Virus record (IMG/VR): IMGVR_UViG_2690316296_000007
Coordinates: 1 to 41,346 of that record
DNA: 41,346 nt
DNA from: a virus
Lineage: Duplodnaviria; Heunggongvirae; Uroviricota; Caudoviricetes
Strand: one strand, 5' to 3'
Shown: positions 302-41,346 of the stretch, in pieces
Layout: the number at the start of each line of letters is the position of its first letter
Position numbering within the stretch: the stretch's first letter is position 1
Position numbers and translations under genes: made by a program
The notes under the pieces: generated by a model
Told to the model about the DNA's origin: nothing
The model's database searches: none
Seen by the model: the letters and a program-made list of their open reading frames with translations, nothing else

Positions 302-1681
302 ATGTGGGAAGATAAGTATATTTGTCATAAATGCGTGAACGATAAATATGTCATGCAGCATATAATAAAAACTGGAAATAATTTTCAGATTTGCTCTTAC
401 TGCAAAAGGAAGCGTAAAAACATCCACCTCAAATATATTCTCAAGATGATGAATGAGGTTTTTGAGTACTACTATGATATATATGAGGATATCTATGATT
501 CCGGGCGCGGTGATAGCGCGCAGGATGTCATCTACGGAGAACTGGGCGTCGAATGGGACGTAGCTGAAGATATTTATGAATTTCTTTGTGATGAATATAA
601 TCCGCATAACGATTATGACTACATCCGGTATAATGACGGGTTTCTTTATCGGCACATAAATCACTATAGCGGAGAGCTTGCGCATACCTGGAGTAAAGCC
701 ACTGACTCCCTTATGAAAGAAACACGATATTTTAACCGTGAAGTTAATGATTTCCTAGATTCACTTTTCAGTGATATCGATAAACTAAAAAACAGAGACA
801 GTAATTCACCGATAAAAACTCTGACTGATGAGGTTCATCTTTTTCGTGCAAGGGTTTTTGAGGACCAAGAGGAAGTAAAGCAAGCCTTGGAGCATCCCGA
901 GAAAAATTTTGGACCTCCCCCAACAACTTTGGCTCGCTCGGGCCGTATGAACGCACAGGGGATTTCAGTATTTTACGGTGCAACCTCAGTGAATTTGGCA
1001 ATTGCTGAAGTAAGGCCGCCCGTCGGCAGTATTGTAGTAACGGCCTGTTTTGTACCGTTACGCGAGCTAAAAGTGCTGGACATTTCTGCCCTTGACTCGA
1101 TTAGTTTCGGCTCAGGTAGTAAATTTGATCCTCAGACTCGCAAAACCAGTGAGCGCGCGATTTTTTTCAGTACGCTTTCCCGTAAGTTGACGCTTCCTAC
1201 TTTTGGAAAAAGGCAGGACAGTGATTACCTCATCACCCAAGTGGTTGCCGATTACCTAGGTGACCGAAATAAATTTAAGCTTGATGGTGTCAGCTTTAAA
1301 TCTACCCAGGTAGATGCCAACGGTGAGGATGCTGAGACAGGATATAATGTCGTTCTGTTTAATAAGTCTTCCGGCGTCAGGCATGCCGCAGATAAATCTC
1401 GCCGATATAATGTTGAGATGTATGAACACATCGAAGATGACCAGTATGCTTTTGTTCCGGAAATTCAGTTGATAGTTGAGGAACAAATAAAACCGAGACA
1501 TATGGGTTCATTTTCATCCTCGCATGACAAAAATGATGCACTACTGTTGAAAACCAACAGTATGACTTATCATAAAATTACTGGTGTAAAATACCAAACA
1601 AGTGAGACGGAGATTCATCAGGGAGATAGCGTTCGAAAACAAGAGCCACCTCAGAAATTCGATGACCTGATTGACTTCTGA
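302..1681 (+). CDS. RES-domain protein with N-terminal zinc-ribbon-like extension (candidate NAD-targeting toxin/defence effector)
   Basis: 459-aa ORF; N-terminus has two CxxC pairs (CHKC ... CSYC); central segment HLFRARVF ... SGRMNAQGISVFYGATSVNLAIAEV fits the RES-domain pattern (conserved Arg, then GRxN...Y...A..E); AT-rich relative to the structural genes. Confidence 0.6.
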   Translation: MWEDKYICHKCVNDKYVMQHIIKTGNNFQICSYCKRKRKNIHLKYILKMMNEVFEYYYDIYEDIYDSGRGDSAQDVIYGELGVEWDVAEDIYEFLCDEYNPHNDYDYIRYNDGFLYRHINHYSGELAHTWSKATDSLMKETRYFNREVNDFLDSLFSDIDKLKNRDSNSPIKTLTDEVHLFRARVFEDQEEVKQALEHPEKNFGPPPTTLARSGRMNAQGISVFYGATSVNLAIAEVRPPVGSIVVTACFVPLRELKVLDISALDSISFGSGSKFDPQTRKTSERAIFFSTLSRKLTLPTFGKRQDSDYLITQVVADYLGDRNKFKLDGVSFKSTQVDANGEDAETGYNVVLFNKSSGVRHAADKSRRYNVEMYEHIEDDQYAFVPEIQLIVEEQIKPRHMGSFSSSHDKNDALLLKTNSMTYHKITGVKYQTSETEIHQGDSVRKQEPPQKFDDLIDF

Positions 1682-1945: not shown

Positions 1946-2335
1946 ATAGATATGTAAGCTCACACCAGAGCTCATACAACTTCTTGCGGCATTTCCGGCC
2001 ATTCAGGATTTGCAGGATCCACACGACTGACCAGAACGCTGTAGCGTTCCCATGCCTCCAGTCGACTGCGCTCCTCATCTGTTGCCATATTCAGCCTGAC
2101 AGCGCGCTCCAGCGGCAAAATCACGGATTCAGCATCTGCTAGAAGTCTGGCTTTCCGATAGCCCATTTAAAGGATAACTTCCAAAGCAGTGGCAACTAAC
2201 ACTATTTATATCATGAGCAAGGCTTTTCCAGTTTTCATGCTCTCAGGGCATAAAAGTATCAACTATTTCTAATCCATGCCGATACTAACAAAAATACCAC
2301 CATAAAATATAATTAAGAAAATGTTAAGGATCTAC

Positions 2336-3010
2336 ATGAAAAGCTATTTAAAAGGTGTTTGGGAATACTTCGCGAGTCACATGTTGTTTATGTATCTCGG
2401 CTCAGTCTCTTTTGCATGGATTGATATCTGGTTTTTTAAAAAAATTGAACCATCAACAATTACTGCAACAGTTTCAACAATAACACTTGGACTAGCGATT
2501 TATGCATTAACAAGGGTAAATGAATGGATTAAAAACAAAAAATCAGAAAAGGCTTTCGAGAGAACTACATTGTTCATCGACAGCATGTTTCGATCAAAGG
2601 ACTTAAATCATCAATGTTATCAATCACTTATTTCTATACAGCCAAGAATAAAAAGTGAGAACCCCATACTCTACAAGCATCTCACTACAAGTGGGAGGGA
2701 GTTACTTTCTGAGTCAAAAGATTTACGATTCGAATTAGTTGCAATTCGGGATAGTTTTGGTTTGTGGAAAATCAAACCTAATCATTCAGACCTTCTAAAT
2801 AATCTCATCACCACCTACACTGCTCTTGTTGCACAATTTAATATCATTTATATTTTAATTGATGAATTAGAGCGTGGTGAAAGGGTAGTTTCTGAGTCAT
2901 CATGGGATAGTTATATCGGAATGATGGCAAGCGCTTATTCAAATTACCATGATCAGTTCGAAATATTCAAAGATTGTAGCTACAATGAACTTTTTAAAAT
3001 CATTAAATAA
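2336..3010 (+). CDS. Hypothetical membrane protein (two N-terminal TM helices)
   Basis: ORF 2321..3010; the ATG at 2336 is preceded by AAGGA; hydrophobic stretches SHMLFMYLGSVSFAWIDIWFF and TATVSTITLGLAIYAL; AT-rich. Confidence 0.45.
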   Translation: MKSYLKGVWEYFASHMLFMYLGSVSFAWIDIWFFKKIEPSTITATVSTITLGLAIYALTRVNEWIKNKKSEKAFERTTLFIDSMFRSKDLNHQCYQSLISIQPRIKSENPILYKHLTTSGRELLSESKDLRFELVAIRDSFGLWKIKPNHSDLLNNLITTYTALVAQFNIIYILIDELERGERVVSESSWDSYIGMMASAYSNYHDQFEIFKDCSYNELFKIIK

Positions 3011-3203: not shown

Positions 3204-4502
3204 TCACCATGAAGGATAATTAGGTTTTTTTCCTCTTAAAAGAGATACTTTGTCAATTATCTCAACAGAAGCAGTTCTATAATCCTCCTGCTGAAGTAGG
3301 TGAACTGCATAATCTCTCAATTCTTGCAAAGTGGAAAAGCCGTTACTTTCGATGAGTATTATAATTATCTTAATATACTTAAAGATTTGTTCAGAGGATT
3401 CGTTCGCGTTGACGTTAAGTTCGTAAAAATCTTTACCATCATGAACAAGCTTGTTTCTTACGTCAGTATATAACTCGTCATAAACTTCTAGGTTTTTCTT
3501 AAATTTGATTAGTGAGTTATTACATGTAAGTGCTGCAATGTAGGTCCTTTGCTTCCATCCTTTCCAATTTGGGTCAATATTAGCAAGACCATCAAGTGCA
3601 AAGACTAGGTTTAGAAATTGTGATTCCGCGCCAATTGAATAAAAAGATTGCCTACATGCCCTAACTACGGAGCTAACTAATTTTGAAAGTTCATTTTCAA
3701 CGACTCCATCGTAGATAGAAGATAAATATTGCAACCCAGGGTAATACAAGCTGTCAACCTGAGGGCCTAGCCAATTATTACTCACAGCAAGGGGTCTTGA
3801 TATTCCACTTATCTTAATTGGTTTAAGATGAGTCCTCTCACGAGGAATGATTTCTACATCATAAAATCCGTCAGAGCGTTGACCTGCAGGATTAGGGGTA
3901 TATTCCATACGTGTAAATGAGCTGTGAGAAAATCTGACTAAATCAAGCGCATATTCAGCTATAGATAAACACATGTTTATAACATGGTTGTTATGATCAA
4001 TGCTTGAATTAAGTTTTAATAAATCAATATATGGTAGGTCACAGTTAAACTGTATATACGAACCATCTTGCTCTGATAATCGCTTATGTGACTCTTCATC
4101 AAATTGTCTTCCGCAATAAAAAATATACTTTCCGATCTCGATGGTTTCCTGAATGAAAATCTTCTCAATCGGCACAATAACTATGCACTCCATATTTTTG
4201 TTTTTACCCTCTAATTCAGCTAATTCTAGGTTAGAGCTTCTTGATTTAGCTAACTCTATTTCTACCCACTCAAAGCATATTGAGAAGTCTTCTAGAATTT
4301 CGATACTGCTTTTTTGATAACTATCCTTGGTATATTTAAATGTAATGCCATCTCCTTCAGGATAGGCACTGGCCCAATATCCCATATCTCTTAACTTTTT
4401 TAGAGATGTTGAGATATCGTCGACTTTATTAATAAAATCCTCTTTTCGCCATAAAACATTGCCAGTGTAGTTTTCGTACGGTGGTATTAAACGAGCTTTC
4501 AT
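3204..4502 (-). CDS. Hypothetical 432-aa cargo protein with Rx4H (HEPN-like) motif; candidate abortive-infection effector
   Basis: Long AT-rich ORF with AAGGAAG 6 nt upstream of the ATG; C-terminal region contains RNKLVHDG (R-x4-H); flanked by the repeated hairpin motif. Confidence 0.5.
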   Translation of the reverse strand: MKARLIPPYENYTGNVLWRKEDFINKVDDISTSLKKLRDMGYWASAYPEGDGITFKYTKDSYQKSSIEILEDFSICFEWVEIELAKSRSSNLELAELEGKNKNMECIVIVPIEKIFIQETIEIGKYIFYCGRQFDEESHKRLSEQDGSYIQFNCDLPYIDLLKLNSSIDHNNHVINMCLSIAEYALDLVRFSHSSFTRMEYTPNPAGQRSDGFYDVEIIPRERTHLKPIKISGISRPLAVSNNWLGPQVDSLYYPGLQYLSSIYDGVVENELSKLVSSVVRACRQSFYSIGAESQFLNLVFALDGLANIDPNWKGWKQRTYIAALTCNNSLIKFKKNLEVYDELYTDVRNKLVHDGKDFYELNVNANESSEQIFKYIKIIIILIESNGFSTLQELRDYAVHLLQQEDYRTASVEIIDKVSLLRGKKPNYPSW

Positions 4503-28204: not shown

Positions 28205-28225
28205 AAACCCGCTCGACGCGGGTTT
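28205..28225 (-). terminator. Terminator-like hairpin upstream of the holin (possible tR')
   Basis: AAACCCGC-TCGAC-GCGGGTTT, followed on the minus strand by a U-rich stretch. Confidence 0.3.
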
Positions 28226-28331: not shown

Positions 28332-29153
28332 ATGAATTTTTCTTACACAAAACAGGATGGTCATACCAAACGCTGCCTTGTCAGAGCATTCAATGTTAAT
28401 ACAGCAACAACAGATATACTCTTCGACCAAATTTCAAATTCTGGTAAATTTATTGTTGACACTGTTTTTAAAATAAACAATGAACAACATTTAATACTGA
28501 AAGAGTTTTCTACAAATAATAAAAGTCATTACTTACACTTTGCATTATATAATCCAAAAGAACAAGTATCGATCACACCAAAAATAAAAACCGCAAGCGA
28601 TCTTCTTGATGTTGAAAACCTTGACAATTTGCACGCTTTTTTATATGTAAAAGAAAATAAAATTGCATCTCTAATGCAAATATCAACAAATTGGTGTGAA
28701 ATTAAAATCGCTAAAATATTCGAGCAATTTGGTATAAAAATAACACCATCAGCAATTTTGCAAAAAAATGTCATTCAACGAATTAAAGATGATAAACTTA
28801 GGGCTTTGCATCTTAATATTAGCGTTGATGCTTCTAATTTTGTGAAAACGCCCAGCTTTATAGACTCTATTTTTCAGAAAGAACCCAAACTTAAAGCTAG
28901 AGGTATTTCAGGACATTTAACTCTTGATGCAAAAGGAAATGCTGAACTAGCACAATCTATTGAAACCAACCCTAGTGGTTGGATAAATGATTTGGATTCT
29001 GATTTTTATATAGAAACAAAAAAAGGAGAGAAAATAACTAGTGACGACATTAAGTTAACAAAAGTTTATTATACAGTCCCTTATGGTTCAAAATCTATTA
29101 ATTCAAAATATGCGAAAGAAATTCTAGAGGACTTTGCTCAAAAAGAGCTATAA
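28332..29153 (+). CDS. Cargo protein A, 273 aa, soluble, unknown function
   Basis: AT-rich ORF with strong Shine-Dalgarno, antisense to the late operon; no recognisable motif. Confidence 0.55.
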   Translation: MNFSYTKQDGHTKRCLVRAFNVNTATTDILFDQISNSGKFIVDTVFKINNEQHLILKEFSTNNKSHYLHFALYNPKEQVSITPKIKTASDLLDVENLDNLHAFLYVKENKIASLMQISTNWCEIKIAKIFEQFGIKITPSAILQKNVIQRIKDDKLRALHLNISVDASNFVKTPSFIDSIFQKEPKLKARGISGHLTLDAKGNAELAQSIETNPSGWINDLDSDFYIETKKGEKITSDDIKLTKVYYTVPYGSKSINSKYAKEILEDFAQKEL

Positions 29154-29176: not shown

Positions 29177-29662
29177 ATGTTAAAATCACTCAATTACTCA
29201 GGTATATCATTAACTTTGTTAAACATTTTAGCCTCAGTATTATTTTCAATTTTCCTCACACATACTTTAACGAACAATACTGACGCATTAAATTTGGTCG
29301 CCAATGTATTTTCTATCCTATCTGGTTTTCTTTTGTTGGTTATCACAATGTCTGGTGAAAACTCTACTCTGATGAACAACTTAAGCAAATTAGACGCTGC
29401 AAATCAAGAAATACGTTTCCTCATGCGTTTTAACAAATATTATGCTTTATTCTTGTTATATATTTTAACATTAGCTTTAATTTTTGTTTTTTATTTAATA
29501 TCCAAGGATAAAGAAAACACATCTCAATACTTCATTCTGTTTAAGAAGTCAATTGGTTACATTATCTCTTTTTTAACTTGTTTTTCTTTTATACAATCAA
29601 CATTCATCCCACTAAAAATAAAAGAATTATTTAAAGAGAAAAGACAACTTAATAAAAAATAG
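29177..29662 (+). CDS. Cargo protein B, 161 aa, four predicted TM helices
   Basis: AAGGAGG Shine-Dalgarno; four hydrophobic segments; ends at the terminator. Confidence 0.55.
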   Translation: MLKSLNYSGISLTLLNILASVLFSIFLTHTLTNNTDALNLVANVFSILSGFLLLVITMSGENSTLMNNLSKLDAANQEIRFLMRFNKYYALFLLYILTLALIFVFYLISKDKENTSQYFILFKKSIGYIISFLTCFSFIQSTFIPLKIKELFKEKRQLNKK

Positions 29663-29684
29663 GCCGCATAGCGGCCATTTTTTT
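29662..29684. terminator. Bidirectional rho-independent terminator
   Basis: GGCCGC-ATA-GCGGCC hairpin with T7 run on the plus strand and T6 run on the minus strand; overlaps the stops of cargo protein B and Q. Confidence 0.6.
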
Positions 29685-30046
29685 CATGTTAACAAAATAC
29701 TTAAACAGCCATCGATGAATCCCATTGCAGTCTGTAATTCTTTTCGGATGGTACCATCAGAACACTTCTGCTTCTTTGCGATAGTTCTTAATGAGATGCC
29801 GATAATAAAATGAGCAATAACCAACTCATACTCTTCGGGCTTATATTTACGCAATCGCGCAACACAGCTGTCAATCATGATTCCTTCATCATCATCGCAT
29901 TGTTGGCGTGTTTTCTTTCCATGAGGTAGTAAACCTTTAAACCCTGCAGCAACAGGCTGCCAGTCCACACCACTGTTATCTGCTGCAGCCCATGCTCCCC
30001 AGCGGTCCAAAACTTCATACATATCACGCATCAACTTTCTCCACAA
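29684..30046 (-). CDS. Late-gene antiterminator Q (QuuD/QuuQ-like)
   Basis: VLDRWGAWAA ... DWQPVAAGFKGLL ... CDDDEGIMIDSCVARL ... CSDGTIRKELQTAMGFIDG resembles E. coli prophage Q proteins as recalled. Confidence 0.8.
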   Translation of the reverse strand: MWRKLMRDMYEVLDRWGAWAAADNSGVDWQPVAAGFKGLLPHGKKTRQQCDDDEGIMIDSCVARLRKYKPEEYELVIAHFIIGISLRTIAKKQKCSDGTIRKELQTAMGFIDGCLSILLT

Positions 30047-30048
30047 AA

Positions 30049-31044
30049 TCAGGCCAGCACACCAATTGCCAGTGCACGATCGATAAAACGAAATATCAGC
30101 TCCAGCTGGGAGCCATACTTCTCTTCAAATGCCACGGTATCCGCATGCAGCTCGTCGTGATGCTTTCTGCACAAAGGCAACACAAAGAGGTCATGCGCTT
30201 TTGTACCCATTCCCCCCTGACCGTGGCCTATCAGGTGGTGGGGATCATCAGCAGGCTTTCCACAACATGCACACAGCTGCGTCTTAACCCAGCGCGTGTA
30301 CTTTTCATTAACCCAGCGGCGACGTTTTGGGCGTAACATAAAAGACTCCGGCGACTCCGGATCCACTTCCAGCGCCAGCACTTTTTTCGCTTTATCCTGG
30401 ATGATGCTGGTGGCAGGAACCGAAGGCACAAGGTCACTTTCCCGGGTAACAGACGGCACAACAGGCTTCGGTAATCTAAGTGCCTTACGGGCTGCACTTT
30501 CCGGTAAGGCATCCGCCAGGTCATTACGAATCAGCCACCAGCACAGTTCCGGCATTGTCACAACGTGACTGTCATCAAAACCGAGATCCCGACGCACAAC
30601 AGACAACACCCAGCGGACACAGTTATCCGTTGCCATTGATTCCAGCCGTTCCGTGAACTGATCGCGCAGCTGGTTATCGCAGTGCCAGCACAGACGGATT
30701 GCGCCCGGAGCGTGTCGCATTGTGGTCATGTTCTCGCTGTGCCAGTCGGAATGAGGCCACTGGCAGCCTTTTTCACGAAGTAACCAGCTTTCAAGACATT
30801 CCACGCCACCAGCACGACGGATCACTGCCTCATTGCGGAACACGGCCCGAACGGCAGGATCATCCGCCAGCGGTTGTGATGCCGCCGGAACGGCACCACT
30901 GGCGAAAGATGAATAACATTCCGGCTCAGGCTCCAGCAGGACACGCCCCTGCATAAACAGGGGCATCAGCTCTGAACCTGGCCTGAACAATACGATCCCC
31001 ATACGCGGGGCAATTTCAGGAGTCAGTAGTGCTCTCACGGTCAC
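30049..31044 (-). CDS. DUF968-family protein (YdfU-like)
   Basis: C-terminus CACCGKPADDPHHLIGHGQGGMGTKAHDLFVLPLCRKHHDELH; adjacent to Q as in Qin-type prophages. Confidence 0.65.
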   Translation of the reverse strand: MTVRALLTPEIAPRMGIVLFRPGSELMPLFMQGRVLLEPEPECYSSFASGAVPAASQPLADDPAVRAVFRNEAVIRRAGGVECLESWLLREKGCQWPHSDWHSENMTTMRHAPGAIRLCWHCDNQLRDQFTERLESMATDNCVRWVLSVVRRDLGFDDSHVVTMPELCWWLIRNDLADALPESAARKALRLPKPVVPSVTRESDLVPSVPATSIIQDKAKKVLALEVDPESPESFMLRPKRRRWVNEKYTRWVKTQLCACCGKPADDPHHLIGHGQGGMGTKAHDLFVLPLCRKHHDELHADTVAFEEKYGSQLELIFRFIDRALAIGVLA

Positions 31045-31045
31045 C

Positions 31046-31876
31046 TCAATGAACGGTATCGAGCAGCTTTAACAGCTCAGGGAATCGGGATTCGAAGAAA
31101 TGCGGCTGCGTCTCGCGCGGATTTGCGGGACTGGTGATGTTCTTGCCGAACATGCAGCCTTTCGCTGTCAGCGACCAGAATTTTTTGATGTTGTTAATCG
31201 CGGTACGGCTGTATCGTTCGCGCTGCTCGACGATCCCCAGCTTCACCATCTGGTGATATGCCTGATTAGCTGTCAGGCGGACACCATACTGCTTCAGCAG
31301 TGCACTCAGTGACAGCGTGGGGCGGCTTGAGCCATCAGGCGCGTCAGCAGGAGCATCAATGGCATAGCGCGGTGCCAGATTCGGTAAGCCAACAGCCTCC
31401 TGGAGTTTCTGACAGGCCCCAAGCACTGATGAGTTAGACAGATTTAACTCCCGGCGCATAAAGTCCAGCAGAATCACACCAGCCTGCATCTTGTCAGCAG
31501 CCTGCCCGGATAATTTTTCCGGTGCGCTGGTTACCATGTCGAAAGTGCGGATCACCTTCAGATGGAATGACGGGCTGATCCACATTGCATAGGCATACAC
31601 CAGTTCTTTGCAGACATACGTCCCCTGGTTATTTCCGCCACGAATAACGTTAACTGGCTCTATATTGACCGAGTTGCAAATCTGCAACTCGCTTATTAAA
31701 CGTTCAGTTTGCTCATTGCGGAGCCAGAATGCAGGCTTATGCTTATCCAGAGAACCGGCAGCCCTGTGCAGATCGTTCAGGCTGTAACGTCCATAAGCAT
31801 CACGACGAACTTCAATACCATCAATGACCATCAGATTATTCATACTTCGTTTCTCCTCTTGATCAGGCGGCTGCAC
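31046..31876 (-). CDS. KilA-N domain protein
   Basis: N-terminus MVIDGIEVRRDAYGRYSLNDLHRAAG. Confidence 0.7.
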   Translation of the reverse strand: MQPPDQEEKRSMNNLMVIDGIEVRRDAYGRYSLNDLHRAAGSLDKHKPAFWLRNEQTERLISELQICNSVNIEPVNVIRGGNNQGTYVCKELVYAYAMWISPSFHLKVIRTFDMVTSAPEKLSGQAADKMQAGVILLDFMRRELNLSNSSVLGACQKLQEAVGLPNLAPRYAIDAPADAPDGSSRPTLSLSALLKQYGVRLTANQAYHQMVKLGIVEQRERYSRTAINNIKKFWSLTAKGCMFGKNITSPANPRETQPHFFESRFPELLKLLDTVH

Positions 31877-32252
31877 CCGCCGTTTTCTCGTACTTACTGA
31901 TAGTGATCTCGACCTTCCCTTCCGGGATAACCGGTCCCCACTCCACCAGCATTCTTTTCACCTGGCTGTCGTCTTCCCACACACCCGCGTGGGTCAGGGC
32001 GTCAAACAGTGCCTTGTTATAGTTGTCCAGATCGCGGATCCGGTTATCCGGAGGAAACAACACGATCTCCACTGAAGCAGGTGCCGACGTTGGTTTTGTC
32101 AGACGACGTAACTGCTCAACTATTGCTGCACACGCCGCGCTCTGAAATTTTCGCCCCGCCGCGCTTATCAGGCTCTTACCAGCAAATGCCCCTTTGTTGG
32201 GGTGTCGCCAGTACGTGTTCACGCTGGGAGGGAAAGGAAGGATCAACTTCAT
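31863..32252 (-). CDS. rusA: Holliday-junction resolvase RusA
   Basis: 129 aa; LPFPPSVNTYWRH ... IRDLDNYNKALFDALTHAGVWEDDSQV. Confidence 0.85.
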   Translation of the reverse strand: MKLILPFPPSVNTYWRHPNKGAFAGKSLISAAGRKFQSAACAAIVEQLRRLTKPTSAPASVEIVLFPPDNRIRDLDNYNKALFDALTHAGVWEDDSQVKRMLVEWGPVIPEGKVEITISKYEKTAGAAA

Positions 32253-32575
32253 ACTTTCAGGCCCCTCTCATGTAACCAGTGGGCTGCACGCAGCCTGGCG
32301 TTTTCCTCACCGGCAAGCAGTGAGCGGATAATCCCGACCGCCTCGCTGTCGTCGTCCTTCACCGCGGTATGAAGCGTTATCCCCCGGGCCACGCCACGCT
32401 TTATCGTGATGACGCCTTTTTTCTCCAGTGCGCGAAGATGCTCCACCGCTGCATTCACCGAACGATATCCCAGCATGGTTGCCACCTCCTGATTGGTTGG
32501 CGGGAAGCCACGTTCTTTCTGGTAAGAAATCAGCATATCCAGCACCTGCTGCTGGCATTGAGTTAACGTCGTCAT
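32249..32575 (-). CDS. LexA N-terminal DNA-binding-domain homologue without the S24 protease domain
   Basis: LTQCQQQVLDMLISYQKERGFPPTNQEVATMLGYRSVNAAVEHLRALEKKGVITIKRGVARGITL aligns with the LexA winged-helix domain as recalled; only about 108 aa. Confidence 0.7.
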   Translation of the reverse strand: MTTLTQCQQQVLDMLISYQKERGFPPTNQEVATMLGYRSVNAAVEHLRALEKKGVITIKRGVARGITLHTAVKDDDSEAVGIIRSLLAGEENARLRAAHWLHERGLKV

Positions 32576-32826
32576 TACGCCCCCACGTAATTCCCTGACA
32601 GATACCACTCATCACTCGATACAGCGCGCTTGCTGCTTTTCCGTAAACACTGCTCACGACGCGCCAGAAAATTGTTTCGTTCTGGCTGGGAGTGGCTTTC
32701 ACGGAATGCCGCCATCCACACCGTTGCAGCACGACGGTATAAGCCCCTGGACTCCAGTTCTTCAGCCTGGCGGGTCAGGTACAAAATCTCCCGCGGGTCG
32801 TTAGTGCTGACATAGAAATTGCGCAC
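32575..32826 (-). CDS. Hypothetical early protein
   Basis: 83-aa ORF whose stop overlaps the start of the LexA-like gene (ATGA). Confidence 0.45.
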   Translation of the reverse strand: MRNFYVSTNDPREILYLTRQAEELESRGLYRRAATVWMAAFRESHSQPERNNFLARREQCLRKSSKRAVSSDEWYLSGNYVGA

Positions 32827-32859
32827 AGGTCTGGTTTCACGAACTGGTTGCGGTTCCGC

Positions 32860-33069
32860 CTACTGCGCTCTCTCAGTCAGGCGCGGGAAATGTCTGCGTG
32901 TATCCCCTTCACAACGGTGAGCCACACGCCCACTCTGACGTAACTTGCTTGCTGACTGCAGAACGCGCTGCCGTGAGTAACCTGCAAAAGCATCCGCAAT
33001 GTCTCCGGAAGTACACCCCGGATGGGCTTCAATGTATTTCTGAACTTCATTCAAAAGACTCATGATCAC
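32860..33069 (-). CDS. Hypothetical small early protein
   Basis: 69-aa ORF between the replication gene and 32575..32826. Confidence 0.4.
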   Translation of the reverse strand: MIMSLLNEVQKYIEAHPGCTSGDIADAFAGYSRQRVLQSASKLRQSGRVAHRCEGDTRRHFPRLTERAQ

Positions 33070-34946: not shown

Positions 34947-35147
34947 CTAATCTTTCGGATAGATATCCGGTCTTAAGTCAGATTTCGTAATTGCACCTGA
35001 CGTGCATTGCTCAAGTTTTTTAGCCAGCACAAAACTGGCTTTTTTATAGCCATTGAAAACCAGCCGTAAATAGCCAGGTGTTGAGCCAACTTTTCCGGCC
35101 AACTCGCCCTGCTGTTCTTTGGTTAAAGAGTCCCAATACGCTTTCAT
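34947..35147 (-). CDS. Cro-like repressor (YdaS-type HTH)
   Basis: 66 aa; GGAGGT Shine-Dalgarno; GELAGKVGSTPGYLRLVFNGYKK ... ELRPD-type HTH; divergent from cI. Confidence 0.7.
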   Translation of the reverse strand: MKAYWDSLTKEQQGELAGKVGSTPGYLRLVFNGYKKASFVLAKKLEQCTSGAITKSDLRPDIYPKD

Positions 35148-35150
35148 ACA

Positions 35151-35222
35151 ATATGTACCTCCAGTGTACATATTACATGATTGAAATGAACCTTCAAGAT
35201 ACTTGTACCTTAACGGTACAAG
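35151..35222. promoter_or_regulatory. OR-like operator region with pR/pRM
   Basis: Palindromes ATATGTACC-tccag-tGTACATAT (35151..35173) and CTTGTACC-ttaac-GGTACAAG (35202..35222). Confidence 0.6.
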
Positions 35223-35237
35223 GGTTTTAATTTCGTT

Positions 35238-35912
35238 ATGAAAACAATCCATGACATCCGGCGGTCTAACGCCAGAAAACTGAGAGATGGTGTTGGCGGG
35301 AATTCTTCCTTTGCCACTATGATTGATCGCGAGCCAACCCAGACCAGCAGGTTTATGGGAGATGGTGCTACTAAAAATATCGGTGACAGCATGGCACGAC
35401 ACATCGAAAAATGTTTCGACCTGCCTGTCGGATGGCTCGATCAAGAACACCAGACAACGAACATCACAAAAAAACCTGATGTTTCAATCACTAATAAACA
35501 AATCACATTAGTCCCTGTCATATCATGGGTACAGGCCGGAGCATGGAAAGAAGTTGGATATTCTGAGGTTGATTTGAGCACAGCAGAAACGTATCCCTGC
35601 CCTGTACCCTGTGGGGAAATGACTTATATCTTGCGGGTGATAGGTGATTCAATGATTGATGAGTACCGCCCGGGAGACATGATTTTTGTCGATCCTGAAG
35701 TACCTGCCTGCCACGGTGACGACGTTATTGCATTGATGCACGATACAGGCGAAACCACCTTCAAAAGGTTGATAGAAGATGGGACACAGCGTTATCTCAA
35801 AGCGTTAAACCCAAACTGGCCTGAGCCTTACATTAAGATCAACGGTAATTGCTCTATAATTGGTACAGTGATTTTCTCAGGAAAACCAAGAAGATACAAA
35901 ATCAAAGCCTAA
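35238..35912 (+). CDS. CI-like prophage repressor (HTH plus S24 LexA-like peptidase domain)
   Basis: 224 aa; C-terminal GDSM ... YRPGD motifs; e14 CohE-like size. Confidence 0.85.
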   Translation: MKTIHDIRRSNARKLRDGVGGNSSFATMIDREPTQTSRFMGDGATKNIGDSMARHIEKCFDLPVGWLDQEHQTTNITKKPDVSITNKQITLVPVISWVQAGAWKEVGYSEVDLSTAETYPCPVPCGEMTYILRVIGDSMIDEYRPGDMIFVDPEVPACHGDDVIALMHDTGETTFKRLIEDGTQRYLKALNPNWPEPYIKINGNCSIIGTVIFSGKPRRYKIKA

Positions 35913-38498: not shown

Positions 38499-38848
38499 TG
38501 GAGCCATACAGCCTCACACTCGATGAGGCCTGTCATTTTCTCAAGATATCCAGACCGACTGCCATTAACTGGATACGCACAGGGCGTCTTCAGGCAACAC
38601 GCAAAGATCCCACTAAGAATAAATCTCCTTACCTCACAACACGACAAGCCTGCATTGCGGCTCTTCAGTCTCCGCTGCATACTGTCCAGGTGAGCGCGGG
38701 TGATGGCATAACAGAGGAAAGAAAATGTCACTCTTCCGCAGAGGTGAAATATGGTACGCCAGTTTCACATTGCCGAACGGTAAAAGATTTAAACAGTCTC
38801 TTGGAACAAAGGACAAAAGGCAGGCGACAGAACTCCATGACAAGCTAA
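38498..38848 (+). CDS. Excisionase-like DNA-binding protein (AlpA/Xis type)
   Basis: [29 protein letters not shown]; ATG at 38498 preceded by AAGAGG; the 3' portion overlaps the integrase start, so the true stop is uncertain. Confidence 0.55.
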
Positions 38849-39888
38849 AGGCTGAAGCATGGCGGGTCAGCAAACTTGGTGAAATACCTGATATAACGTT
38901 CGAGGAAGCGTGTGTCAGGTGGCTTGAAGAGAAAGCACATAAAAAATCACTGGACGATGACAAAAGCCGGATCGGATTCTGGCTTCAACATTTCGCAGGA
39001 ATGCAACTAAGAGACATTACTGAATCAAAAATTTATTCAGCAATGCAGAAAATGACGAACCGGCGTCATGAGGAAAACTGGAAACTCAGGGCAGAAGCAT
39101 GCAGAAAAAAAGGGAAACCTGTTCCAGAATACACGCCAAAACCAGCGTCCGTTGCAACGAAGGCTACGCATCTTTCATTTATAAAGGCCCTACTAAGAGC
39201 CGCAGAGCGTGAATGGAAAATGCTGGATAAGGCACCAATTATTAAAGTGCCTCAACCAAAGAATAAACGGATCCGCTGGCTGGAGCCCCATGAAGCACAA
39301 AGGCTGATTGATGAATGTCCGGAGCCATTAAAGTCTGTTGTTGAATTTGCACTGGCAACAGGCTTAAGACGCTCGAACATCATCAACCTTGAATGGCAAC
39401 AAATAGATATGCAGCGCCGGGTGGCATGGATAAACCCGGAAGAGAGTAAATCAAACCGCGCAATTGGCGTTGCGCTGAATGATACTGCATGTCGCGTATT
39501 GAAAAAACAAATCGGGAATCATCACCGTTGGGTATTTGTGTACAAGGAAAGCTGTACCAAACCAGACGGAACGAAAGCGCCAACAGTAAGGAAGATGCGG
39601 TATGACGCAAACACAGCCTGGAAAGCGGCGCTGAGACGGGCTGGTATTGATGATTTCAGATTTCACGACTTGAGACACACCTGGGCAAGTTGGCTGGTTC
39701 AAGCCGGAGTCCCGTTGTCAGTGTTACAGGAAATGGGAGGCTGGGAGTCTATCGAAATGGTTCGTCGATATGCTCACCTTGCACCTAATCACCTTACCGA
39801 ACACGCACGGCAAATAGACTCGATCCTGAACCCATCGGTCCCAAATTTGTCCCAGTCAAAAAATAAGGAAGGTACTAATGATGTGTAA
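38725..39888 (+). CDS. Tyrosine integrase
   Basis: 387 aa; N-terminal arm-binding region ([22 protein letters not shown]); C-terminal [39 protein letters not shown] with catalytic Tyr. Confidence 0.9.
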
Positions 39889-39902: not shown

Positions 39903-39978
39903 TGGTGCCGATAATAGGAGTCGAACCTACGACCTTCGCATTACGAATGCGCTGCTCTACCAACTGAGCTATATCGGC
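39903..39978 (-). tRNA. thrW: tRNA-Thr (anticodon CGU)
   Basis: 76-nt cloverleaf GCCGATATAGCTCAGTTGGTAGAGCAGCGCATTCGTAATGCGAAGGTCGTAGGTTCGACTCCTATTATCGGCACCA; anticodon loop TT-CGT-AA; 3' CCA end faces the integrase. Confidence 0.9.
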
Positions 39979-40092: not shown

Positions 40093-41346
40093 TTACGCAC
40101 GAATGGTGTAATCACCAATGCCGATCCACTTGTAAGTGGTCAGTGCTTCCAGCCCCATTGGGCCACGCGCGTGGAGTTTTTGTGTGCTTACCGCCACTTC
40201 CGCACCCAGACCAAACTGGCCGCCGTCGGTAAAACGCGTAGAGGCGTTAACGTAAACAGCGGACGAATCCACTTCGTTAACAAAACGCTGGGCGTTGCGC
40301 ATATCGCGGGTCAGGATCGCATCGGAGTGTTGTGTGCCGTGTTCACGAATATGGGCGATGGCATCGTCAAGATCGCTGACGATTTTGACGTTCAAATCTA
40401 ATGACAGAAACTCATCGTCATACTCTTCGGCTTTAACAGCAACCACCTTCGCAGGGCCTGCCTGCAACTGCGCCAGTGCAGCTGCATCTGCGTGTAATGT
40501 CACGCCGCTTTCCGCCATTTGTTTGCTTAATGCGGGCAGGAAGCTATCGGCGATGTTTTTATTCACCAGCAACGTTTCAACCGTATTACATGTGCTCGGA
40601 CGCTGAGTTTTCGCGTTGACGATCACTTTTAATGCTTCAGCGATCTCTACACTTTCATCAACGTAAATATGGCATACGCCTATACCACCTGTGATCACCG
40701 GGATTGTCGACTGTTCACGGCACAGTTTATGCAAACCAGCGCCACCACGCGGGATCAGCATGTCGATGTATTTATCCATACGCAGCATTTCACTGACCAG
40801 CGCACGGTCAGGATTATCAATCGCCTGCACGGCACCCGCCGGTAAGCCACAGGATTTCAGGGCGTCCTGAATCACCGCCACCGTTGCCGCGTTAGTGCGA
40901 CAGGTTTCTTTGCCACCACGCAGGATCACCGCATTACCGGTTTTCAGGCACAGCGAAGCGACATCAACCGTCACGTTCGGGCGCGCTTCATAAATCACGC
41001 CAATCACCCCCAGCGGCACGCGACGACGCTCAAGACGCAGGCCGCTGTCCAGTACGCTGCCATCGATTACCTGCCCCACCGGATCGGCGAGGTTACACAC
41101 CTGGCGCACATCATCGGCAATGCCTTTCAGCCGTGCGGGCGTCAGTGCCAGACGGTCAAGCATCGCTTCGCCAAGGCCATTGGCACGCGCGTCAGCAACA
41201 TCCTGGGCGTTAGCGTTGAGGATGATTTCGCTTTGTGCTTCCAGTTCATCGGCGATTTTTTCCAGCACGCGATTTTTTTCGCGGCTGGAGAGTTGCGCTA
41301 ATTTATACGAGGCTTGCTTCGCGGCAATGCCCATTTGTTCCAGCAT
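40093..41346 (-). CDS. proA: Gamma-glutamyl phosphate reductase
   Basis: 417-aa [45 protein letters not shown]... matching enterobacterial ProA as recalled; host gene flanking thrW. Confidence 0.95.

Follow-up and report, generated by a model that had tools for sequence, protein, structure and literature searches.

A prophage-encoded mini-LexA protein with a conserved C-terminal tail, modelled as a helical hairpin, in place of the S24 domain

What does a temperate phage of enterobacteria do with the DNA-binding domain of LexA when the protease domain of LexA is missing, and would such a protein act at the SOS operators of the host or at a site belonging to the phage? The question was raised by the open reading frame at 32249–32575 of IMG/VR record IMGVR_UViG_2690316296_000007, all 41,346 nucleotides of which were analysed (referred to as the window). 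An earlier note had described the product, here called mini-LexA, as a phage protein comprising only the LexA DNA-binding domain, which lacks the S24 autocleavage domain and is not RecA-cleavable.

The window was 97–98% identical to Shigella phage SfII and to SfI/SfIV-like phages, confirming the phage origin. A tRNA-Thr(CGU) gene (39903–39978, minus strand) was located between the integrase gene (38725–39888, plus) and a proA-like aldehyde-dehydrogenase ORF (40093–41346, minus), and we take this tRNA gene to be thrW, the attachment site of SfV/SfII-type phages. In the left flank, a gene at 302–1681 (plus) codes for a 459-aa RES-domain protein with a weak match to a HEPN/RES N-terminal domain and may serve as a toxin or in defence; the nearby ORFs at 1837–2142, 2321–3010 and 3204–4502 gave no Pfam match. 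The coordinates assigned to the mini-LexA gene in the earlier note were exact, with the ATG at 32575 and the TGA at 32249–32251 on the minus strand. The stop codon of the upstream PerC-family gene overlaps the start of mini-LexA in the sequence TAATG (32573–32577), and the stop of mini-LexA overlaps the start of rusA in ATGA. As both ends overlap neighboring genes, the gene is part of a compact operon and a chance ORF is excluded. A longer frame of 119 aa from a GTG at 32608 was ruled out, since homologues begin with MTTLT, the Pfam profile begins at Met1, and the Shine-Dalgarno sequence precedes the ATG. The features are listed in Table 1.

Table 1. Mini-LexA, its parts and the surrounding genes in the window
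Feature	Position	Strand	Basis or remark
Mini-LexA CDS, 108 aa plus stop	32249..32575	minus	ORF and sequence, PF01726, PHROG 362
Shine-Dalgarno sequence GGGGG	32580..32584	minus	read off the sequence
LexA-type winged helix-turn-helix domain, residues 1–68	32372..32575	minus	AlphaFold (pLDDT about 88), Foldseek, phmmer against PDB
Recognition helix SVNAAVEHLRALEK, residues 39–52 (LexA: SPNAAEEHLKALAR)	32420..32461	minus	alignment to LexA
Flexible linker, residues 69–74	32354..32371	minus	pLDDT <50 at 71–74, pTM 0.57, high column entropy
Two-helix hairpin, residues 75–108 (helices 75–87 and 93–102)	32252..32353	minus	pLDDT about 88–90
rusA	31863..32252	minus	PF05866; directly downstream, ATGA overlap
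KilA-N gene	31046–31876	minus	Pfam
DUF968/HNH gene	30049–31044	minus	Pfam
Antiterminator Q	29684–30046	minus	same module (29684..31876)
yfdN/PerC-family gene	32575..33069	minus	upstream in the same operon; in-frame TAA at codon 70
cro	34947–35147	minus	immunity switch
S24-type cI (PF00717)	35238–35912	plus	divergent from cro
Immunity switch gating expression, cro to cI	34947..35912		operators lie between the genes

Residues 1–65 of the protein matched the LexA_DNA_bind profile PF01726 over its entire length (1–65 of 65; E=2.9e-19), and the domain score of 69 bits was above the gathering threshold of 23.7. A phmmer search against PDB detected the N-terminal domain of E. coli LexA (1lea) with E=7e-16 and full-length LexA with E about 1e-15. 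The single-chain AlphaFold model, constructed from 43 homologues (pLDDT 83), was superposed by Foldseek onto 1lea and 3jso with an rmsd of 1.1–1.3 Å over 66–68 residues, at 50–52% identity to E. coli LexA. These results agreed with the proposal that the N-terminal ~70 residues align to the LexA winged helix.

The Pfam search of the 108-aa protein gave no match to PF00717, the S24 profile. The LexA equivalog profile TIGR00498 was covered only at positions 1–91 of 203, with a score of 70.8 bits, below the cut-off of 110.95. A domain bearing the S24 Ser-Lys dyad is thus missing, as had been claimed. The alignment with LexA continues up to the cleavage-site region, where Ala88-Gly89 of mini-LexA corresponds to Ala84-Gly85 of LexA (LLAGE versus VAAGE). 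Gly89 is replaced by Asn in the Citrobacter members and the Ala-Gly motif is missing in other branches; as Gly89 is not conserved, a cleavage-site mimic or a trans-cleavable decoy was ruled out. With neither a protease domain nor a conserved cleavage site, inactivation by the route used for LexA would be impossible. The sequence thereby supports the view that mini-LexA is not RecA-cleavable in the manner of LexA, and the protein is probably a DNA-damage-proof regulator.

One statement of the earlier note was incorrect. The protein does not comprise only the DNA-binding domain, as this domain is followed by a flexible linker and by a conserved hairpin reaching to residue 108. In the AlphaFold model the hairpin stood apart from the winged helix (pTM 0.57). 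The residues L86, L87, A93, A97, W100, L101 and G105 were conserved across branches that are 40–50% identical, and the length of 104–112 aa together with the tail motif was also kept in these branches. When compared with the Citrobacter homologue, dN was 0.29 for the tail, 0.18 for the DNA-binding domain and 0.23 for the whole gene, with synonymous sites saturated. Judging from these sequence comparisons, the tail is under purifying selection. The search for a fold or family of the tail gave no significant match in PDB, Pfam or Foldseek, and a match to HOIL-1L with E=1.9 was discarded as chance level. According to the model, the arrangement of a DNA-binding domain, a flexible linker and a small separate helical module mirrors the architecture of LexA, with the hairpin in the place of S24. 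The hairpin is probably a dimerization module that replaces the S24 domain.

Mini-LexA belongs to PHROG 362, annotated as 'transcriptional repressor', with E=1.4e-59 and residues 1–108 aligned to positions 1–106 of the 106-position profile, so that the tail is included in the family. Among 5426 complete E. coli genomes, 2233 carried the gene, under the NCBI name 'LexA family transcriptional regulator/protein'. It was also present in 63 phage records, among them those of SfV (orf42, 'unknown'), SfII, SfIV, mEp460, the cdtI phage, 2H10, Ayreon, 1720a-02 and the Stx2a/2c/2k phages. The window gene is a member of both the PHROG and the NCBI groups and shows no structural difference from them. The members from SfV (orf42), SfII (SfII_44), mEp460, the cdtI phage, the Stx2a/2c/2k phages and 1720a-02 were 95–100% identical and occupied the same place before rusA. 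The mEp390 member (gp43) was 47% identical to the window protein and was also located before rusA. Full-length relatives were confined to Enterobacterales, and short LexA-domain proteins lacking S24 were common in unrelated phages. Several proteins (P0128, P0129, P0130, P0138, P0139 and P0142) carry two LexA_DNA_bind domains in tandem without S24; having both domains in one chain, these are single-chain pseudo-dimers.

The family is therefore already catalogued and extremely common, and the concept of a phage-encoded truncated LexA has been published. No functional study of the mini-LexA family of PHROG 362 was found in the literature, and the database labels 'transcriptional repressor' and 'SOS-response repressor and protease LexA' arose by the transfer of names. 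Labels such as 'LexA repressor' and 'SOS-response repressor and protease' are misleading for a mini-LexA without the protease domain. What is new here is the conserved hairpin in place of S24, the loss of Glu44 throughout the family, and the SOS-box/DinI operon context of a sister branch, the latter two of which are described below.

The position of the gene provided information on when it is likely to be expressed. The order on the minus strand is cro, a CP76/cII-like gene, a 112-aa ORF, a replication protein gene, the yfdN/PerC-family gene, mini-LexA, rusA, the KilA-N gene, the DUF968/HNH gene and Q. Mini-LexA lies in the lytic operon about 2.6 kb downstream of the immunity locus, and cI is a separate gene. 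The possibility that mini-LexA is the CI/S24 immunity repressor was rejected, as it is off the immunity locus, is not divergent from cro, and has no S24 domain. No convincing promoter or terminator was found between cro and Q, and a bidirectional terminator follows Q at 29662–29676. Because of this operon structure, with mini-LexA between cro and Q and no separate promoter seen, we infer that it is a delayed-early lytic gene of the PR operon, which should be made only after CI cleavage or derepression, or on infection. A corresponding location, directly ahead of rusA or close to it and with DUF968 and Q further downstream, was observed in mEp390, in Enterobacter/Leclercia-type and Cronobacter prophages, in a Klebsiella phage and in Edwardsiella phage EPP-1. 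The module order of KilA-N, DUF968/HNH and Q also recurs in other branches, and rusA is the sole constant neighbor as mini-LexA moves among mosaic phage backgrounds. A PADLOC search for defence systems gave no meaningful match for mini-LexA.

Some further features of the operon region were recorded. The yfdN/PerC-family gene has an in-frame TAA at 32860–32862 (minus strand) where intact copies encode Glu70, and is otherwise about 98% identical to a 164-aa gene of E. coli 1428; this stop codon makes it, in the window, either a pseudogene or a gene split into parts of 69 aa and 83 aa. Two plus-strand moron ORFs of no clear family (28332–29153 and 29177–29662) lie between Q and the lysis genes, and a terminator-like hairpin (28205–28225, minus) is located just upstream of the holin gene.

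The window was then searched for sites to which a LexA-type protein might bind. The matrix for SOS boxes was constructed from the sequences of 20 E. coli operators. No SOS box was found in the window with this matrix; the best score was 11.5 bits, inside a gene and below those of all the training operators. Perfect matches to CTGT-N8-ACAG were absent from the window, and matches with one mismatch numbered 21 against 12.7 expected, a marginal enrichment that was entirely located in coding DNA. Half of 80 near-identical loci lacked an SOS box within 6 kb; in the others, the boxes belonged either to the immunity region or to a moron that separates Q from the holin gene. Searches for inverted repeats in all regulatory gaps of the window, for perfect palindromes with 5-bp arms common to eight loci, and for CTnn-N6-10-nnAG palindromes gave no candidate operator. 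A shared palindrome, AAACT-N11-AGTTT, proved to be a conserved stop/start gene junction. A palindromic operator of the type bound by gp6 of Bacillus phage GIL01, placed at the -35 region of a late promoter, was not found in the intergenic regions of the window by a search that saw only perfect or near-perfect short palindromes.

The survey for SOS boxes also gave several observations in other loci. Near-perfect boxes of 27 bits were located inside the coding sequence of SfII-type cI (L001:12290 in SfII cI, and L007/L009:2069), with a similar near-perfect box at L013:2103. This internal box is kept even though the central bases vary between alleles, and it may point to a LexA-controlled promoter within the gene or to a roadblock; the e14-type cI of the window has no internal SOS box. 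Related prophages also have SOS boxes preceding what look like defence or moron genes. In Klebsiella phage ST846-OXA48phi9.1 (L004:3994), an SOS box precedes a KwaB-like (Kiwa) two-gene cassette. In E. coli 1428, three boxes are situated upstream of a Panacea-domain gene, and another one precedes a DNA methyltransferase gene that lies between Q and the holin gene (L002:598–702 and 13547).

The residues expected to contact DNA were compared with those of LexA. In two papers, which cite earlier work, the contact residues of LexA are given as Ser39, Asn41, Ala42, Glu44 and Glu45. These positions were tabulated for 123 members of the family that have the tail and come from several enterobacterial genera. 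Ser39 and Asn41 were invariant (123 of 123 at both positions), Ala42 was present in 108 and Glu45 in 110 of the members, as in LexA, and the wing residues Arg64-Gly65-Ile66 were essentially invariant and identical to those of LexA. Position 44 was occupied by A, V, T or F, and the Glu of LexA was found in none of the 123. By this list of contacts, the window protein keeps four of the five residues, with Val at position 44. Some branches have changed further: a form with SPNAVALHL has also lost Glu45, and a Citrobacter form has NTITGHL. In the Citrobacter homologue, four of seven recognition-helix positions differ, against an overall divergence of 33%. The near-invariance of four of the five listed contacts together with the conserved wing argues for one conserved target motif. 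Since the gene carries this conserved reading head and no non-coding DNA of its own, the evidence points to a LexA-box-like motif supplied by the host. On the other hand, the loss of Glu44 throughout the family and the further changes in some branches suggest that specificity or affinity may differ from that of LexA and between branches.

A link to the SOS response was observed in the sister branch from Klebsiella and Enterobacter. These proteins belong to PHROG 362 (E=1.6e-39), are 39–42% identical to the window protein and have the same tail. A strong canonical SOS box, scoring 17–29 bits with the matrix of 20 E. coli operators, was located upstream at a fixed offset in 27 of 28 viral loci. 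The box overlaps a promoter that comes after a terminator, at -437 to -690 from the mini-LexA match (L023:4306, L027:4467, L036–L062 and L068). Two promoter classes were distinguished, with and without dinI. The order in the class with dinI is SOS box, DinI, phrog_1813, mini-LexA, phrog_1212, RusA (in some loci), DUF968 and Q, and the identity of DinI was confirmed by Pfam in two loci of this class (L023 and L050). DinI binds RecA filaments and is a modulator of the SOS response. In many of the sister loci, another SOS box was present about 480 bp upstream of the first, before a 109-aa ORF that starts with MGFPSPAKDYAEQ and has no Pfam match; this start resembles a UmuD motif.

In Edwardsiella phage EPP-1, a 25-bit SOS box (L005:4231) overlaps a promoter that is followed by a Rha-family gene, a gene for a 71-aa tail-less LexA domain, DUF968 and a Q-like gene. 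The 71-aa protein is independent and has kept Glu44. The arrangement in EPP-1 may be a LexA-controlled antirepressor module with built-in feedback. As the phages with SOS boxes are interrelated, they represent few independent events, perhaps three. The SOS-box context is evidence on the timing of expression and on the neighborhood, not on binding specificity. The location of mini-LexA in the PR operon of an SOS-inducible prophage and that of the sister branch behind SOS boxes and DinI make a link of mini-LexA to the SOS response plausible.

The protein was compared with three systems that have been described. Host LexA (1lea, 3jso, TIGR00498) shares with mini-LexA the winged helix, Ser39, Asn41, Ala42 and Glu45, the Arg-Gly-Ile wing, the linker after the domain, and similarity up to the region of the cleavage site. 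Unlike LexA, mini-LexA lacks the S24 domain, the catalytic Ser/Lys and a conserved Ala-Gly, falls below the TIGR00498 cut-off, has Glu44 replaced, ends in a 34-residue helical hairpin, and is phage-borne in a lytic early operon. The only characterized truncated LexA of a phage is gp6 of GIL01 (PMC6182141), a 66-aa protein whose expression from an early operon follows SOS derepression; its operator is the palindrome GaCACAnnTGTGaC, distinct from the LexA box, and it serves as the activator of the late promoter P3. Like mini-LexA, gp6 is a LexA_DNA_bind domain without protease (PF01726, E=8e-14, no protease domain) encoded in an early operon of a temperate phage. It differs in being a tail-less protein of a tectivirus with a Gram-positive host, and in that its operator and activator role have been experimentally shown. 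BLASTP gave no alignment between the two proteins at E<=100, and they have the Pfam domain alone in common, suggesting that the LexA domain was captured independently. The N-terminal fragment of cleaved LexA (residues 1–84) corresponds to the LexA DNA-binding domain after its release from the protease domain. This fragment retains weak operator binding, and is reportedly removed by ClpXP via its new C-terminus. The C-terminus of mini-LexA is different and, in the model, structured, and may both stabilize and dimerize the protein.

The reading that we prefer, tentatively and at somewhat less than even chances, is that mini-LexA is a dimeric, RecA-proof surrogate of LexA, produced during the destruction of LexA and active at LexA-type operators. 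The hairpin would dimerize the protein, so that two DNA-binding domains are tethered to a dimer core as in LexA. Synthesis would occur once CI is cleaved or on infection, when host LexA is being destroyed, and the dimer would bind LexA-box-like palindromes of the CTG…CAG type. It would then re-impose or retune repression of the host SOS genes and of SOS-controlled genes in co-resident prophages and morons, and DNA-damage signaling would be unable to remove it from SOS-type operators. Against the surrogate reading stand the replacement of Glu44 in all 123 members, the lack of an SOS box in the window and within 6 kb of half of the 80 near-identical loci, and the non-LexA palindrome and activator role of gp6. 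Mini-LexA might instead be a regulator with a phage-specific palindrome of its own, as is gp6, namely a captured and retuned domain that represses or activates a phage promoter, for example in timing late, moron or antirepressor genes, and for which the host SOS boxes are not the site. The binding of gp6 to GaCACAnnTGTGaC and its activation of P3 are the precedent. The loss of Glu44 in all 123 members, the branch-dependent variation of the recognition helix, most marked in Citrobacter (four of seven positions against 33% overall), and the frequency of short LexA-domain proteins in unrelated phages also agree with a private operator. However, no candidate site was detected in the window or in common among the loci, the gene moves between mosaic backgrounds without flanking non-coding DNA and with rusA as its only constant neighbor, and Ser39, Asn41, Ala42 and Glu45 are conserved across branches. 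We consider a private operator the main alternative, somewhat less likely than the surrogate reading.

Two other explanations were also weighed. The recognition helix and the wing are among the most conserved parts of the protein, as expected for sequence-specific binding, which makes it very unlikely that mini-LexA acts as a non-classical factor through protein contacts or DNA transactions, such as pairing with LexA N-terminal domains on DNA, titration of a host factor, or an accessory role to RusA or DUF968/HNH. Its constant proximity to rusA and DUF968 could speak for such a role; this adjacency is weak evidence, because the nin-type gene order is conserved generally. The tail, which has no known fold match, could likewise be an interaction module. 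As for a decaying, functionless remnant of a full-length LexA or CI-type repressor gene, which is suggested by the alignment running to the cleavage-site region, the conservation data effectively refute it: the length of 104–112 aa and the tail motif are conserved at 40–50% identity, dN is 0.23 at saturated synonymous sites, the gene is translationally coupled to both neighbors, and it is intact in thousands of genomes.

The surrogate reading has a wider form, in which about 40% of E. coli genomes would carry an uncleavable stand-in for LexA that re-silences SOS-controlled genes during lytic growth, and would thus serve as an anti-SOS factor, in competition between prophages or as an anti-defence factor. 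Its targets would be host SOS functions, the SOS-triggered antirepressors of rival prophages, colicins, and SOS-boxed defence morons such as the Kiwa-like and Panacea genes of related prophages, and the Klebsiella/Enterobacter stand-in would work together with DinI. We regard this wider form as unlikely to hold. If mini-LexA has a private operator instead, it would join the accessory regulators of the nin region and be of no more than local interest. If LexA-type operators are occupied by mini-LexA, part of the SOS regulon would be detached from RecA signaling in induced or infected cells by a prophage gene that is very common and that Shigella serotype-converting phages and Stx2 phages carry. 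Such a detachment would bear on the induction of Shiga-toxin phages, prophage competition, SOS mutagenesis, antibiotic tolerance and SOS-boxed defence genes.
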